Assembly: GCA_951406725.2 (NCBI GenBank)
Contig: OX597814.1
Span: 29,264,001-29,328,000, forward strand
Origin: Octopus vulgaris
Lineage: Eukaryota
DNA length: 64,000 nucleotides
Direction: 5' to 3'
The stretch's first letter is position 1. Each line of letters starts with the position of its first letter. Made by a program: the position numbers and the translations under genes. This document shows positions 6,981 to 56,044 of the stretch, one piece after another. The notes below the pieces were generated by a model. It ran no database searches. It was not told where the DNA came from and saw nothing but the letters and a program-made list of their open reading frames with translations.

Positions 6981-7017
6981 GGCGCAGGAGTGGCTGTGTG
7001 GTAAGTAGCTTGCTAAC
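6981..7017 (+). mobile_element. 5' portion (A-box side) of the SINE A copy split by the element array
   Basis: GGCGCAGGAGTGGCTGTGTGGTAAGTAGCTTGCTAAC; the SINE resumes at 15231. Confidence 0.9.
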
Positions 7018-8994
7018 TGCGCATGTGCGAGTCAGTGTTGTGTTTGCTACTGAAGCAGTGAAGATGTGCTTTTGAAGCCGTCTTGAATTGAAACTTTGGA
7101 AGCCCCATGTAAGGTAAGATTCTGTTTTCTGTGTCCAGTGGGAGTTTTTGTTGAGAATTATTTTTTACATGCAGGAAGTCCTACTGGATTCAGAATTCTG
7201 ATTCTGCCGACATGTGGCAGATATATTTTTCTCGCTGAGAAAATTTTGGGGGGCGTATCCGTCTTCGAATTGTGAAAATTGTATGGTGCTGTGAAGAACT
7301 ACCAATTTTACACCAATTTTTGTGGAAGTTGTGCGATCCTGGTTCGATTTAGGCCGGGAGTACCAAATGGCCAAAAGGATTTTGCTGTGTTTTTGACTTT
7401 CTTTTTAACTTTATTTGACTTTCTTTTCAACTTTATTTGACTCTCTCCGTTTTTCATTGTGACATTCTTCGGATTTCCTTTTCTTCTCGTTTTTTAGTTT
7501 TATTCTAAATACATTTATTTAAAAAAAAAAAACAAAAAAAAACATGGCAACAAAAGAAACCACCGCTTTGGAATGGGAGGTCGTCCCACCAAGCAGTGGA
7601 TTGAAAGTCTTGAGAAGAGGACGGTGGTCCTACGAACCTATTCTAGGTCGCGTGGAGCCATTGCCCTCTTCGACAAGAATACTATAGAGAAAGAGTTGGG
7701 GGACTACCTGCCAACTATAAAATTTATTTCTCGGGGGAGTAAATTTGCAACGGTCTGGTTGCTGTTTGGTACCCCCGAGGAAGCTAGCAGATTTGCTAGC
7801 GAGCCACTGGAGGGAGAGGAAATTTTGTTCCTCCCCTCGTATTGTGGCAGAAAAGTGAAAAGAGCCTGGGTGTGTGGGCTGCCCCCGGGCATGGAGGCGG
7901 AATGGATCGAAAAGACCATCCGGCGAGGCCTGGGGGATAGCGGACCCAGACTGCTGAGTGTGAAGGTGGCTCCCGCGGTCGCCTGGCAGGGGTCGAGGGC
8001 AACCTTGACCCTGTGGACACCGGTAGCCGTGGGGCAAATGAAATTCCCGGACTTCCTGAGAATGGCTGGGCACAGGTACCCGGTGATACTCGAGGGTCGC
8101 CCCCCAAGTGTCACCTGTGCCTGAAGCCCGGACATATCAGGAAGAATTGTCCCAGGGGCCGTAGTGGTGCCCCGGAGCAGAGAGGGGAAAAGGCGCCCGC
8201 CGCCCCCTCATTGGAGGGGGAGACGATGGAAGTCGTGGAGGAGGTTGCCTCCACGAAAAGAAGAGAAAGGCGAGCAACAATGGTTGCCCGCCAAAGAACG
8301 CTCAGGGGGCGAAGGGGGATAGCAATCCCCCGTGTCTGGTGACGGAGTCCCCTGGGTCAGCAGTCTCCCCCAAAAGAAGGAGGAGAAAAAGGAGAGGTCG
8401 GACGACTGACGTTTCTGTGTCGCCGACGGAGCCGCGGGTGGGATATGTGCCACCCGCGGACAAGGCTCCGCCAGTGGGAAGTGTGCCACCGACGGAGCAG
8501 TGTGAGGTCCCTCCCTGTGAAGAGGAGATGCTTCTCCTCCTCTACCACAAGGGAGAGGAGGTTGAAAGATTCTTGAATGGCTTGGGTGACCGAGAGCGTA
8601 AGGACACGGTCGGCTCAAGGAGTCCGTTATGGCCTCCGCAGGTAGCTGCGGAAAAAGTAACAGAAGATACTTTGTCAAGGGTCGCAGAGACCTTTGAAAA
8701 GAAAGACTTTACCTTTCTCTTTGCAGGCCCCGACTTGTCGTCGCAGAGTTGTCTGCAGGCGGCAAGACAATTTGCTTCGGGGACCTGACGAGAAGAATTG
8801 TTGAACATTTTTTTTGAATCATTGTTTATTAAATGTATTTATTGAAACATTGTTTTAGAGAAGCAAAAGTCGGCGGGCGCTTTCGACTTCTCCCATCACC
8901 ATCTTCATCAACCACCACCATCATCCATTAATGTCCTTGTCCAGCCCGTAGCTACTACTCTGTGTGCTGCCCTAGTGGCAAATTATTTAAAATA
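7018..8994 (+). mobile_element. ORF1-only, SINE-inserted element, unit 1 (subfamily I)
   Basis: Bounded by AAGTAGCTTGCTAAC at 7003-7017 and 8995-9009; near-identical to units 2 and 3. Confidence 0.85.
7544..8788 (+). CDS. Tx1/L1-type ORF1 (gag-like) CCHC zinc-knuckle protein, 3 single-base frameshifts
   Basis: Joined frames read MATKETTALEW...EGRPPKCHLCLKPGHIRKNC...ARQFASGT*. 1245 nt plus 3 missing homopolymer bases gives 1248 nt (415 aa). Confidence 0.75.
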
Positions 8995-9009
8995 AAGTAG
9001 CTTGCTAAC

Positions 9010-10979
9010 TGCGCATGTGCGAGTCAGTGTTGTGTTTGCTACTGAAGCAGTGAAGATGTGCTTTTGAAGCCGTCTTGAATTGAAACTTTGGAAGCCCCAT
9101 GTAAGGTAAGATTCTGTTTTCTGGGTCCAGTGGGAGTTTTTGTTGAGAATTATTTTTTACATGCAGGAAGTCCTACTGGATTCAGAATTCTGATTCTGCC
9201 GACATGTGGCAGATATATTTTTCTCGCTGAGAAAATTTTGGGGGCGTATCCGTCTTCGAATTGTGAAAATTGTATGGTGCTGTGAAGAACTACCAATTTT
9301 ACACCAATTTATGTGGAAGTTGTGCGATCCTGGTTCGATTTAGGCCGGGAGTACCAAATGGCCAAAAGGATTTTGCTGTGTTTTTGACTTTCTTTTTAAC
9401 TTTATTTGACTTTCTTTTCAACTTTATTTGACTCTCTCCGTTTTTCATTGTGACATTCTTCGGATTTCCTTTTCTTCTCGTTTTTTAGTTTTATTCTAAA
9501 TACATTTATTTAAAAAAAAAAAAAAAAAAAACATGGCAACAAAAGATACCACCGCTTTGGAATGGGAGGTCGTCCCACCCAAGCAGTGGATTGAAAGTCT
9601 TGAGAAGAGGACGGTGGTCCTACGAACCTATTCTAGGTCGCGTGGAGCCATTGCCCTCTTCGACAAGAATACTATAGAGAAAGAGTTGGGGGACTACCTG
9701 CCAACTATAAAATTTATTTCTCGGGGAGTAAATTTGCAACGGTCTGGTTGCTGTTTGGTACCCCCGAGGAAGCTAGCAGATTTGCTAGCGAGCCACTGGA
9801 GGGAGAGGAAATTTTGTTCCTCCCCTCGTATTGTGGCAGAAAAGTGAAAAGAGCCTGGGTGTGTGGGCTGCCCCCGGGCACGGAGGCGGAATGGATCGAG
9901 AAGACCATCCGGCGAGGCCTGGGGGATAGCGGACCCAGACTGCTGAGTGTGAAGGTGGCTCCCGCGGTCGCCTGGCAGGGGTCGAGGGCAACTTTGACCC
10001 TGTGGACACCGATAGCCGTGGGGGAAATGAAATTCCCGGACTTCCTGAGAATGGCTGGGCACAGGTACCCGGTGATACTCGAGGGTCGCCCCCCCAAGTG
10101 TCACCTGTGCCTGAAGCCCGGACATATCAGGAAGAATTGTCCCAGGGGCCGTAGTGGTGCCCCGGAGCAGAGAGGGAAAAGGCGCCCGCCGCCCCCTCAT
10201 TGGAGGGGGAGACGATGGAAGTCGTGGAGGAGGTTGCCTCCACGAAAAGAAAGAGAAAGGCGAGCAACAATGGTTGCCCGCCAAAGAACGCTCAGGGGGC
10301 GAAGGGGGATAGCAATCCCCCGTGTCTGGTGACGGAGTCCCCTGGGTCAGCAGTCTCCCCCAAAAGAAGGAGGAGAAAAAGGAGAGGTCGGACGACTGAC
10401 GTTTCTGTGTCGCCGACGGAGCCGCGGGTGGGATGTGTGCCACCCGCGGACAAGGCTCCGCCAGTAGGAAGTGTGCCACCGACGGAGCAGTGTGAGGTCC
10501 CTCCCTGTGAAGAGGAGATGCTTCTCCTCCTTTACCACAAGGGAGAGGAGGTTGAAAGATTCTTGAATGGCTTGGGTGACCGAGAGCGTAAGGACACGGT
10601 CGGCTCAAGGAGTCCGTTATGGCCTCCGCAGGTAGCTGCGGAAAAAGTAACAGAAGATACTTTGTCAAGGGTCGCAGAGACCTTTGAAAAGAAAGACTTT
10701 ACCTTTCTCTTTGCAGGCCCCGACTTGTCGTCGCAGAGTTGTCTGCAGGCGGCAAGACAATTTGCTTCGGGGACCTGACGAGAAGAATTGTTGAACAATT
10801 TTTGAACATTTTATTAAATGTATTTATTGAAACATTGTTTTAGAGAAGCGAAAGTCGGCGGGCGCTTTCGACTTCTCCCATCACCATCTTCATCCACCAC
10901 CACCATCATCCATTAATGTCCTTGTCCAGCCCGTAGCTACTACTCTGTGTGCTGCCCTAGTGGCAAATTATATAAAATA
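9010..10979 (+). mobile_element. ORF1-only element, unit 2 (subfamily I)
   Basis: Target 15-mer at 8995-9009 and 10980-10994. Confidence 0.85.
9533..10778 (+). CDS. ORF1-like CCHC zinc-knuckle protein, 2 single-base frameshifts
   Basis: ORFs 9533, 9748 and 10200 join; 1246 nt plus 2 missing G in G-runs gives 1248 nt. CX2CX4HX4C motif present. Confidence 0.75.
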
Positions 10980-10994
10980 AAGTAGCTTGCTAAC

Positions 10995-12974
10995 TGCGCA
11001 TGTGCGAGTCAGTGTTGTGTTTGCTACTGAAGCAGTGAAGATGTGCTTTTGAAGCCGTCTTGAATTGAAACTTTGGAAGCCCCATGTAAGGTAAGATTCT
11101 GTTTTCTGTGTCCAGTGGGAGTTTTTGTTGAGAATTATTTTTTACATGCAGGAAGTCCTACTGGATTCAGAATTCTGATTCTGCCGACATGTGGGAAATA
11201 TATTTTTCTCGCTGAGAAAATTTTGGGGGGCGTATCCGTCTTCGAATTGTGAAAATTGCATGGTGCTGTGAAGAACTACCAATTTTACACCAATTTTTGT
11301 GGAAGTTGTGCGATCCTGGTTCGATTTAGGCCGGGAGTACCAAATGGCCAAAAGGATTTTGCTGTGTTTTTGACTTTCTTTTTAACTTTATTTGACTTTC
11401 TTTTCAACTTTATTTGACTCTCTCCGTTTTTCATTGTGACATTCTTCGGATTTCCTTTTCTTCTCGTTTTTTAGTTTTATTCTAAATACATTTATTTAAA
11501 AAAAAACAAAAAAACATGGCAACAAAAGAAACCACCGCTTTGGAATGGGAGGTCGTCCCACCCAAGCAGTGGATTGAAAGTCTTGAGAAGAGGACGGTGG
11601 TCCTACGAACCTATTCTAGGTCGCGTGGAGCCATTGCCCTCTTCGACAAGAATACTATAGAGAAAGAGTTGGGGGACTACCTGCCAACTATAAAATTTAT
11701 TTCTCGGGGAGTAAATTTGCAACGGTCTGGTTGCTGTTTGGTACCCCCGAGGAAGCTAGCAGATTTGCTAGCGAGCCACTGGAGGGAGAGGAAATTTTGT
11801 TCCTCCCCTCGTATTGTGGCAGAAAAGTGAAAAGAGCCTGGGTGTGTGGGCTGCCCCCGGGCACGGAGGCGGAATGGATCGAGAAGACCATCCGGCGAGG
11901 CCTGGGGGATAGCGGACCCAGACTGCTGAGTGTGAAGGTGGCTCCCGCGGTCGCCTGGCAGGGGTCGAGGGCAACTTTGACCCTGTGGACACCGATAGCC
12001 GTGGGGGAAATGAAATTCCCGGACTTCCTGAGAATGGCTGGGCACAGGTACCCGGTGATACTCGAGGGTCGCCCCCCCAAGTGTCACCTGTGCCTGAAGC
12101 CCGGACATATCAGGAAGAATTGTCCCAGGGGCCGTAGTGGTGCCCCGGAGCAGAGAGGGGAAAAGGCGCCCGCCGCCCCCTCATTGGAGGGGGAGACGAT
12201 GGAAGTCGTGGAGGAGGTTGCCTCCACGAAAAGAAAGAGAAAGGCGAGCAACAATGGTTGCCCGCCAAAGAACGCTCAGGGGGCGAAGGGGGATAGCAAT
12301 CCCCCGTGTCTGGTGACGGAGTCCCCTGGGTCAGCAGTCTCCCCCAAAAGAAGGAGGAGAAAAAGGAGAGGTCGGACGACTGACGTTTCTGTGTCGCCGA
12401 CGGAGCCGCGGGTGGGATGTGTGCCACCCGCGGACAAGGCTCCGCCAGTAGGAAGTGTGCCACCGACGGAGCAGTGTGAGGTCCCTCCCTGTGAAGAGGA
12501 GATGCTTCTCCTCCTTTACCACAAGGGAGAGGAGGTTGAAAGATTCTTGAATGGCTTGGGTGACCGAGAGCGTAAGGACACGGTCGGCTCAAGGAGTCCG
12601 TTATGGCCTCCGCAGGTAGCTGCGGAAAAAGTAACAGAAGATACTTTGTCAAGGGTCGCAGAGACCTTTGAAAAGAAAGACTTTACCTTTCTCTTTGCAG
12701 GCCCCGACTTGTCGTCGCAGAGTTGTCTGCAGGCGGCAAGACAATTTGCTTCGGGGACCTGACGAGAAGAATTGTTGAACATTTTTATGTAATTTGAATC
12801 ATTGTTTATTAAATGTATTTATTGAAACATTGTTTTAGAGAAGCAAAAGTCGGCGGGCGCTTTCGACTTCTCCCATCACCATCTTCATCCACCACCACCA
12901 TCATCCATTAATGTCCTTGTCCAGCCCGTAGCTACTACTCTGTGTGCTGCCCTAGTGGCAAATTATATAAAATA
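10995..12974 (+). mobile_element. ORF1-only element, unit 3 (subfamily I)
   Basis: Target 15-mer at 10980-10994 and 12975-12989. Confidence 0.85.
11516..12762 (+). CDS. ORF1-like CCHC zinc-knuckle protein, 1 frameshift (G-run near 11706)
   Basis: ORFs 11516 and 11731 (343 aa) join; 1247 nt plus 1 gives 1248 nt. Confidence 0.8.
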
Positions 12975-12992
12975 AAGTAGCTTGCTAACCAG

Positions 12993-15230
12993 ACATGCGC
13001 AGTTAGTCGGTTGCTTCCTGTTGAGCTAGAGTGGACGTGAGTAACAAGCTTTGTCCAACTAAAGAAAAAAGACCAAAAACGGAAAGTTGTCGAGGTAAGT
13101 GATTTTGTTTATTGTGAGTTGGGCATAATTTATTGCGTGCCAATTATTATTTCAGTAGGTTGTGTCCAACTCTGAGACAATTTCGCCTGCGCTAGGCGGC
13201 TGCCGTTTTTGTGTTCATTGAAAAAAAAAAAAAAAAAAGAAAAAACAGTGGAGGGGCGTATCCTCAGAATTCAATACAGTTACTGTTAAAATCACCGTTG
13301 GCGGTAGCCAGTGCTGTGTTTGGATTTGTTGAATTTATTCCCTTGTCAGAGTACTTCGCAAGAAAAGTATAAAAATAAGCCACTATTGGATTACCTTTCG
13401 GACCCTTTTTGTGGAGGTTGTGTTGCAGTTGCGGTGTTCCAGGTTCAACCCAGGCCGGGAGTACCGCAAGGCCAGAATATTTTTGCTGTGTTTTTTCTGT
13501 TTATTAACTTTCTTTTGAACTTCATTTACCCCCCCCCTTTTGTTTTTTCTTTATTGCGACTTTCCGTTAATTTCTTCCCTTCTGTTGTGCTTTCTCCTTT
13601 TTGTTTTTTCAAAAATCTATCAAATTTATTTAGACTTTTGAACTTTTTTCTTCCTGCTTTTGAGTCTAATTTGAATATATTTTTAAAAAACATGGCAATG
13701 AAAAATAACAAAGTTTTGGAGTGGGAAATCATACCACCCAAAAAGTGGTTGAAGGACCGTGAAGATAGGACGGTGGTGTTGAGAACCTACTCCAAGGCAC
13801 TTGACACCATCGCCCTATTCGAAAAGACGGCAATTGAGGAGGAGTTGGAGGAGTATTTGCCAACAATTAAATTCATTTCCAGGGGTGTCAAATATGGAAC
13901 GGTGTGGTTGCTGTTTGACACCCCTGAAGAGGCTTGCAAATTTGCTAGCGAACCCTTGGAGGGTAAGGAAATCTTATTCCTGCCCACTTACAAAAAAAAG
14001 AAATTGATGAAAGCTTGGATCTGCGGACTGCCACCCGACATAGAACCCGAGTGGATAGAGGAGACTATCCGCCGGGGTCTGGGTGACAGCGAAACTAAGC
14101 TCCTCAATGTAAAAGTTCTTCCTGCGGCTGCTTGGGTTGGCTCGAAAGCAGTTTTGACCCTGTGGACCCAATCAGCCAATCTGGTTTTCCAGATTTTTTG
14201 AAAATGGCCGGGTGCAGGTACCCGGTGATGCTTGAGGGTCGCCCCCCTAAGTGTCATCGGTGCTTGGAGTCCGGCCACATAAAGAAGAACTGTCCTCGGG
14301 AACAAAATAGGATCCCGGAACAGTTACGTAAAACCCCTCTAGAAGAGGGAACGATAACGGCCGAGAAAGCAGAGGACTCCTCAAGCAGAGGCCGAAAGAG
14401 GAAGGTGAGCAACAATGGGTGCTCACCAAAGGATAATAGGGATGAGGAGAGGAGGGCGAATCTTCCAGCCACGGAGGAGACGCACCCTCCCTCAGTTGAA
14501 AAGGAAAAAAAAAGAAAAAGAGGAAGAAAAACGGGACGTTGCCGGCTGTCAGTGTGGCACCGGAATGTCGCGGAACTACGTCGGTTGGGGTTGTGCCACC
14601 GACAAGAGAAGGAATACCGTTGGCGGAAACTGTGCCGCCAACGAAAGAACTGAATGTATTGGTCCTCTTCTATAGAGGAGGAGAAATTGAAAAAGTGATG
14701 GAAGAGCACTACAAGGGAGCACCTTTAGCCTTCACACAGGACCCCGAATGGCCTCCGCAGGTAGCTGTGGAGGCCGTGGCGTTCGACGTGACGCTAGGGC
14801 TAAAGGAGCTCAATGAAGACTATAACTTGGTCCCGGGCGACGCGAACTCGGAACTTGACTACGTTCTGAGGGAGGCGTGGTTGATGGTGGAGGGCGCGGG
14901 CACAAGCTATTTCGAGGACGATATGTATTATTAGTAATGGACTTAAGTCCAAAAATTGAAAAATTGTAAGAGGATTAATACCTCGTTTTGTATTAATAAT
15001 GGACTGCTAAGCCCAAAATTGGAAAAATTGTAAGAGGTTTAATACCTCGTTTTGTGTTAATCTTTTTAAAAAGAACAATGTTTTAGAGAAGCAAAAGTCG
15101 GCGGGCGCTTTCTGTCTTCTCCCATCCTTATCATCTTTCTTTCATTATCATTCACCTCATTAATGTCCTCGTCCAGCCCGCAAAGCTAACTTAATCTGTG
15201 TACTGCCTTTATGGCAAATGTTTTGAAATA
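12993..15230 (+). mobile_element. ORF1-only element, unit 4 (divergent subfamily II)
   Basis: Flanked by AAGTAGCTTGCTAACCAG (12975-12992) and AAGTAGCTTGCTTACCAG (15231-15248); ORF and UTR blocks homologous to units 1-3. Confidence 0.85.
13692..14934 (+). CDS. Paralogous ORF1-like CCHC zinc-knuckle protein, 2 frameshifts (~414 aa)
   Basis: MAMKNNKVLEWEIIPPKKW...RTVVLRTYS...EGRPPKCHRCLESGHIKKNC...WPPQVAVEAV, collinear with units 1-3. Confidence 0.75.
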
Positions 15231-15371
15231 AAGTAGCTTGCTTACCAGCCACATGGTTCCGGGTTCAGTTCCACTGCGTGGCATCTTGGGCAAGTGTCTT
15301 CTGCTATAGCCCCGGGCCAACCTATGCTTTGTGAGTGGATTTGGTAGACGGAAACTGAAAGAAGCCTGTCG

Positions 15372-15408
<37 letters not shown>

Positions 15409-15618
15409 ATGTGTTTGTGTGTCTGTGTTTGTCCCCCTAGCATTGCTTGACAACCGATGCTGGTGTGTTTACGTCCCCGTCACTTAGCGGTTCGGCGAAA
15501 GAGACCGATAGAATAAGTACTGGGCTTACAAAGAATAAGTCCCGGGGTTGAGTTGCTCGACTAAAAAGGCGGTGCTCCAGCATGGCCGCAGTCAAATGAC
15601 TGAAACAAGTAAAAGAGT
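15231..15618 (+). mobile_element. 3' portion of the split SINE A (B-box, body, tail)
   Basis: Continues the head sequence from 7003 onward and ends GACTGAAACAAGTAAAAGAG. Confidence 0.9.
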
Positions 15619-55122: not shown

Positions 55123-55336
55123 GAGGGGTGCTGAAAAGTTCCTGGTTTTAAGTGTACCGCGAAAGGCCTGGCTGGAGGCTCAACTTCAGAGTTCTTTTAC
55201 AGGGTTTAGAAAAACTGAAGGACTGCTGCTAAAAGTGTGTGAATCTGAGAAGGGAATATGTTGAATAAAATCATAATTAACTGATCCTCCTGTATTTTCT
55301 TTTACGCAGAGCCAGGAACTTTTCAGCACTCCCTCG
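55123..55336. mobile_element. Mariner-type MITE
   Basis: Same TIRs as the 45288 copy. Confidence 0.8.
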
Positions 55337-55349
55337 TGCGTGTGTATAG

Positions 55350-56044
55350 CTCGTAGGATGAGTTTCTGGATCTTAAGAACCTTCCGGTCCAGAGAACAAG
55401 GTGTTATCATACCACTTTTCTCCTCCCTTGTACGGCCACACCTTGAATACTGCTGCCCACTGTGGTCTCCCCATACAAAACAAAACATCTCGAGGATTGA
55501 ATCACCCCAGAGGGCACTCACTAAACGAATTGAAGGCATGGCTGCACTCGATTATTGGGACCGCCTTAAAGCCTTGAAACTCTACACTCTCCAGCGCCGC
55601 CATGAGCAGTACATCATTTGTACGATGTGGAGAATATACCGCCAACTTTGCCCAAACGACCTGAACATTAGTTTCAAGGTTCATCCAAGACTGGGACCAC
55701 GGGCCATACGTCCCCTGCCCAATTCAAGATCACACCATATATGTACACTGCAACATAATTTCTTTTCCTCAGCAAGCCCTGCCCTATTTAACATTGTCCC
55801 GAAAGAGATCAAAGAGGAAAAGGATCCCATCAACTTTAAACGGAGTCTGGATAGATTCCTTCAAGGAATACCAGATAAGCCACCCATAATTGGATATAAC
55901 TCACCCAACAAAAACTCACTACTTGAATGGACCATAAACAAAACTTGACTTAAACAGGATTTAGATAATCCTCTCAGGTGGTGCTATTAAGTTAGACATG
56001 GCCTGGACCAATCTTTGGTCGAAACACATATAAGTTTTATATAA

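Follow-up and report, generated by a model that had tools for sequence, protein, structure and literature searches.

The window analysed here, a 64,000-nucleotide stretch of Octopus vulgaris contig OX597814.1 (assembly GCA_951406725.2, positions 29,264,001 to 29,328,000), contains at 7003-15245 four head-to-tail, ORF1-only units which together split one SINE. The units are 2.0-2.25 kb long and the same 15-bp target copy is found at all five junctions of the array (Table 1). Units 1-3 belong to one family, A, and are mutually 99.2-99.3% alike; unit 4 represents a second family, B, which is 61% alike to family A. The initial annotation regarded the ORF1s as paralogues. This holds for the A and B types but, since units 1-3 are near-identical, the window contains two paralogue types and not four. 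From its shape, the split repeat is probably a tRNA-derived SINE; ARAGORN predicted no tRNA gene within the array. Unoccupied SINE copies with the same head lie in the window at 1955, 3291, 6478 and 22523, and exact empty target sites number 58,235 in the 2.8-Gb genome.

Table 1. Features of the array of ORF1-only units and of the SINE that it splits (window positions).
Feature	Position	Strand	Remarks
Target SINE 5' head, up to insertion site	6981..7002	+	Head matches empty copies
Target-site copy 1, 15 bp	7003..7017	+	Other copies at 8995, 10980, 12975, 15231
Unit 1, family A ORF1-only element	7018..8994	+	
Unit 1 ORF1	7544-8788	+	Single-base indels, within short runs, disrupt the frame
Unit 2, family A	9010..10979	+	
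Unit 2 ORF1	9533-10778	+	Two homopolymer breaks
Unit 3, family A element	10995..12974	+	
Unit 3 ORF1	11516..12762	+	One G-run break near 11705; 415 aa in intact copy L001
Unit 3 predicted RRM-like folds, two	11594..12063	+	About residues 27-98 and 104-183
Unit 3 CCHC zinc knuckle	12082..12123	+	zf-CCHC, under Pfam cut-off
Unit 3 basic proline-rich linker, VPP repeats	12124..12501	+	Predicted disordered, pLDDT <41
Unit 3 C-terminal alpha/beta domain (family A)	12502..12759	+	Model and 26-member alignment
Unit 3 3' hairpin, 4-bp stem, 5-nt loop	12948..12960	+	Just before A-rich end
Unit 4, family B ORF1-only element	12990..15230	+	
GGACGTG-like motif of unit 4	~13033-13039		
Unit 4 ORF1	13692..14934	+	Breaks: T run near 14184, A run near 14500; 414 aa in intact family B copies such as L039
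Unit 4 C-terminal domain (family B)	14647..14931	+	Alignment
Unit 4 3' hairpin (family B)	15204..15216	+	
Last target copy and rest of SINE	15231..15615	+	End approximate

Splice-donor-like and acceptor-like motifs are visible in the 5' UTRs of both families (window ~11090-11150 and 13095-13155); the contigs of eight sequencing runs, six of them presumably RNA, list no splice joint. In most families, a GGACGTG-like motif is also found at a distance of 28-29 or 57-60 bases, counted from where the target copy starts, a spacing typical of a downstream promoter element; in families of the 28-29 group the start site would then fall inside the SINE target. Elsewhere in the window, a 223-aa frame at 55277-55948 (forward strand) looks like the C-terminal portion of ORF2 from a LINE of the CR1/L2 type.

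The structure of the ORF1 protein was predicted in two parts: the full-length model failed at residues 1-328 and the N-terminus was therefore refolded with a deeper alignment. The resulting model (L001 copy, 22-sequence alignment, pLDDT 83) comprises two beta-alpha-beta-beta-alpha-beta units. In Foldseek it matches tandem-RRM proteins best (E = 3e-4), and structural alignment with RRMs gives Z scores of up to 7.6, while an Atlas comparison of the same part leads to CCHC proteins and to clusters of ZCCHC3-type RNA-binding domains (score 0.90). Among the 22 family members, zf-CCHC matches, below the Pfam cut-off, are present in 16 and Transposase_22 matches in none. ORF1 is thus predicted to be of type I, with two RRM folds and a CCHC knuckle, the architecture that had been expected from the initial reading. 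The linker that follows the knuckle is, as described there, basic with VPP repeats; it is also proline-rich and is predicted to be disordered.

The only protein homologue found comes from Octopus sinensis, with 61% identity across 68% of the query. In that species the annotated uncharacterised gene LOC115225585 corresponds to an ORF1 from this lineage in truncated form. The annotation of a relative as a gene and the resemblance of the N-terminal part to ZCCHC3 clusters could be taken as signs that the ORFs have been domesticated into a host gene family of ZCCHC3 or L1TD1 type, which might for example restrain the LINE. Such an origin is hard to reconcile with the at least 150 dispersed matches in the genome, accompanied by target duplications, with their retrotransposon 3' ends or with the near-identical young copies (the 28 family B copies have a mean divergence of 1.1%); nor was any fixed orthologous locus seen. 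We consider it the least probable of the explanations discussed here, and very improbable in itself.

Behind the linker, the conserved block noted by the initial annotation in both types of unit is modelled as a separately folded alpha/beta domain of about 85 residues (pLDDT ~80-89 outside one loop), alignable over 26 members down to 20% identity. In family A it is predicted to contain three strands and three main helices, and a W-P-P-Q motif is conserved. One way of accounting for such a block would be as a decayed piece of ORF2, but no similarity was evident either to the ORF2 of the autonomous partner element described below (BLAST E = 1.5, hhalign 0.1%) or to 120 homologues of it (best E = 23). 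Other searches were similarly negative. No credible match was found in Pfam with any of the 26 members, among PDB sequences, in the ESM Atlas or in a full-length-alignment search of shorter proteins. Foldseek returned nothing at E = 0.001 and structure-wide alignment nothing with Z of 5 or above, the best match having Z = 4.3 (rmsd 3.6, 74 aligned residues) among many weak ferredoxin-like rows. The profile search that had been proposed for this block yielded no credible homologue among 1.84 billion proteins: the two matches obtained were both to tandem-repeat proteins and were discarded as artefacts. Finally, the domain profile matched neither the element's own RRMs nor the tail of the partner ORF1, the profile of the latter consisting of four sequences only. 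Among the loci sampled, the domain is confined to the clade of ORF1-only elements. Locus L091, upstream of a partner-like element, gives weak matches (E = 0.01-0.03), a hint of a more distant type of the domain.

The sequences on which the initial annotation based its case for selection, two codon strings for PTIKFISRG and two C-terminal blocks, are indeed present. We calculated dN/dS between units 3 and 4 with an X codon placed at each frame break and with bootstrap intervals. Over residues 1-206 (202 codons), where two-thirds identity had been judged by eye, identity is 68%, dS 1.50 and dN 0.21, giving dN/dS of 0.14 (0.04-0.22) with synonymous sites near saturation (pS = 0.65). The linker has a value of 0.37 (0-0.67). 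The C-terminal domain (83 codons) is 25% identical with dN/dS of 0.59 (0-1.13), an interval that reaches 1. The intact copies L001 and L039 give 0.14, 0.44 and 0.54 for the N-terminal part, linker and C-terminal domain, respectively. For the domain, individual pairs give values between 0.13 (A vs A2) and 0.88 (A vs G), and 12 disjoint pairs, which also contain neutral decay after insertion, give 0.72 when pooled (0.58-0.91), with two of the 12 above 1; in eight pairs with dS below 0.1 the median is 1.6. The RRM-knuckle part is therefore under strong purifying selection, as had been claimed for ORF1 as a whole, whereas the constraint on the C-terminal domain is real yet weak.

The interrupted frames in the window are likely to be errors of long-read assembly. 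Of the 62 frame-breaking indels in 33 copies of family A, 50 consist of one base within a run of at least three; in 28 copies of family B the figure is 28 of 36. Runs of this length occupy about one quarter of the ORFs. Copies free of frameshifts number six of 33 in family A and nine of 28 in family B. Contigs of other sequencing runs have one extra base at two of the window breaks, although these mirror the family and not this particular locus.

Pairwise dN/dS gives no date for selection, and many old copies are broken. The elements could accordingly be recent products of deletion or decay of autonomous LINEs, their low dN/dS being inherited from before the loss of ORF2. Phylogeny and gene content argue in the other direction. 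The 15 ORF1s sampled from ORF1-only elements of at least six families group in a single clade (support 100/100, with a midpoint root only), separate in the tree from six ORF1s of autonomous type, and families A and B have a common 3' UTR block directly after ORF1. No ORF2 lies within 1 kb downstream of 91 of the 92 C-terminal-domain matches, a count of top-scoring matches from which 16 others too near the end of a locus had been dropped and in which some duplicates are possible; the one exception is a chimera, L042. Recent decay would demand an independent loss of ORF2 in every family, and we judge it very unlikely, if a little less so than the host gene. In agreement with the earlier inference, the ORF1-only state is old; the clade is also diverse and has been mobile in recent times. 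No autonomous ancestor with an A/B-type ORF1, which sits on a long branch, was found among the loci sampled; since only the best 150 candidates were scored, an autonomous family of this kind may exist.

A second set of ORF1-only elements, family C (L032:7994-9488 and L034), is 1.5 kb long and occupies the same site but has no C-terminal domain. Its ORF1 falls outside the ORF1-only clade and is nearer than that clade to the ORF1 of the partner. In family C the ORF1-only state probably arose a second time.

The partner is a 5.45-kb element found in arrays elsewhere, flanked by the same target copies. One copy, L083, encodes an ORF1 of 467 aa and an ORF2 of 1133 aa in which Pfam recognises APE, RT and zf-RVT domains. 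Among solved structures, human L1 ORF2p is nearest to the partner ORF2 (E = 8e-67), with R2 at 6e-20. By sequence, the partner is an autonomous APE-RT LINE of the L1/Tx1 group. The Tx1 clade is a good fit, given APE, RT and a C-terminal zinc motif near to L1, a type I ORF1 and sequence-specific insertion, though no Tx1 or L1 family names appear among the 120 listed homologues of its ORF2. The element is young and abundant, with 85 exact 3' ends adjoining the target; the corresponding number for family B is 153. The ORF1s of the partner and family A are homologous, with about 30% identity over the RRM-knuckle part, so that the ORF1-only elements are unlikely to be its deletion products. At L092 (G000:C29:6204500-6214400), tandem 4.27-kb elements related to the partner have apparently lost part of ORF2.

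The 3' ends provide a further connection. The last ~45 nt are 83-88% alike between the ORF1-only elements and the partner, and all families end with a 4-bp hairpin and an A-rich tail. An alignment of 25 distinct ends shows pairing in 98 of its 100 cells and compensatory change in seven, and none of 500 shuffles reaches as high a covariation, which also exceeds that of all slid controls; the test is limited in that there are only four pairs and that related sequences can beat shuffles. The use of the same SINE site and the common hairpin with its compensatory changes make it likely that the partner supplies the RT. We therefore interpret the units as ORF1-only, non-autonomous non-LTR retrotransposons inserted at one SINE site and likely copied by the endonuclease and RT of an autonomous LINE of the L1/Tx1 group, and would place the probability of this reading at about 0.8. 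The element RNA would be translated into ORF1 protein, which would coat that RNA in cis; the partner ORF2 protein would then recognise the hairpin and A-rich end of the RNA and carry out target-primed reverse transcription at the SINE site. If ORF1 protein acts in cis in this manner, a broken ORF1 would be selected against.

A single RT that meets A, B and partner RNAs would be expected to produce fusions and mosaics, and both are found. In the L042 chimera (G000:C4:127351000-127360900), which lies behind an A unit, a family B ORF1 and 3' UTR are joined to the ORF2 and 3' end of the partner. Loci L094, L035, L027 and L138 represent domain-swapped families, with a D-type N-terminus and A-type C-terminus or with A fronts and B ends; in the D/A mosaics dS is 1.5 against 0.07-0.2. 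We infer that these structures fit template switching by one RT.

The initial annotation offered two possible roles for the C-terminal block, recruitment of the partner RT and assistance in targeting. The second idea is weakened by the fact that the partner and family C are found at the same site without the domain, which is thus not required for site choice. As for the first, the 3' RNA hairpin held in common with the partner is a simpler candidate. The likeliest role for the domain, with about an even chance, is that of a protein-contact module for particle assembly or docking.

Directly behind 17 of 30 exact A ends, at nine loci, is another element: eight A, six B and three partner. With 58,235 sites standing empty, such stacking of family A in front of other elements greatly exceeds chance. 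Behind B ends, in contrast, a pattern that would accept starts of A, B or the partner matches only three times, always at a partner start, compared with the 153 B ends counted by a similar pattern, and 42 of 50 exact B starts directly follow the SINE head. A single master A-B unit was rejected as the source, the B copies behind A belonging to four or more B sub-lineages, and plain tandem duplication is disfavoured by the different A haplotypes of units inside arrays. Each array was likely built from several RNAs that entered one site, either serially as the site was regenerated or through template jumping. A one-base junction variant common within two arrays favours local copying, and upstream target copies that differ from the downstream ones at position 13 favour either a 5' end carried by the RNA or a duplication of lesser length.

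This stacking of A upon B or the partner, together with the restriction of the C-terminal domain to the ORF1-only clade among sampled loci, could point to ORF1 protein as a trans helper which co-assembles with partner particles and steers or boosts them through that domain. There is a precedent in HeT-A Gag, which helps TART (PMC2173066, PMC5786205). However, all five partner copies for which both outer junctions are seen (L082, L083, L085, L086 and L087) sit alone in the SINE, the constraint on the domain is weak, as discussed above, and selection on a trans-acting product would presumably be diluted among elements. Help in trans thus seems unlikely, albeit clearly less so than either recent decay or a host gene. 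Within the preferred reading of elements copied by the partner, a more specific scenario may be ventured, tentatively and with somewhat better odds than the trans helper: that the ORF1-only riders of a SINE-targeting LINE are an old radiation which gained a C-terminal domain docking their particles on integrations begun by other elements, family A inserting mostly atop B or the partner. The domain is carried by both A and B, though stacking marks A. If true, family A would be a rider on riders, building mixed head-to-tail arrays within SINEs.

Non-autonomous LINEs that encode an ORF1 are already known as HeT-A, HAL1 and Ag-Sponge, of the Jockey, L1 and CR1 clades (PMC5786205; HAL1 is defined in PMC5753468). 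The octopus units resemble them in having ORF1 as the sole encoded protein, a 3' end in common with an autonomous partner and, as family C suggests, repeated origins; HeT-A and TART also form head-to-tail arrays, as do the units and their partner. They differ in that the units have a type I ORF1 of the L1/Tx1 group, far from that of the partner, are site-specific in a SINE and carry an extra C-terminal domain for which no homologue was found. HAL1 in the strict sense is a mammalian L1 derivative with a type II Transposase_22 ORF1, unlike the predicted knuckle and two RRM folds of the units. Type I ORF1p with RRM and CCHC, of Khazina and Weichenrieder, is described in PMC5203782. In both it and ZCCHC3-type domains, as in the units, a zinc knuckle comes after tandem RRM folds; the units differ in the long basic linker and folded C-terminal domain behind. 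In the accessible part of PMC10351740, ZCCHC3 is not linked to Tx1.

The closest parallels to the insertion behaviour are the sequence-specific Tx1-clade LINEs Tx1, Keno, Kibi, Koshi and Tx1-Mar, together with SINEU (PMC4494074). Their targets include DNA and LTR transposons, snRNA and 5S genes, satellites and microsatellites, and their tandem insertions sandwich a target duplication (PMC4494074); a SINE target is not named in the accessible part of that source. APE-RT, a strict target inside a repeat, tandem insertions and non-autonomous riders on the target are thus common to both systems, but the octopus system differs in its target, a SINE head, and in its protein-coding riders. Thirteen recently active L1-Tx1 families, with a mean of ~5.4 kb per insertion, have been reported in O. 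vulgaris (PMC13282606) and may include the partner; the words 'ORF1', 'non-autonomous' and 'target' are absent from the main text of that report. We found no description of this octopus system in the open literature, although deposits in Repbase or Dfam are possible.

At a practical level, octopus gene catalogues can take these ORFs for host genes. More broadly, the range of site-specific retrotransposons is widened by a LINE whose target is the head of a SINE and by an ORF1 domain for which no relatives are known. With six or more ORF1-only families, an intact partner and some 58,000 identical target sites side by side in a single genome, this animal allows a direct test of whether ORF1 acts in cis or in trans.
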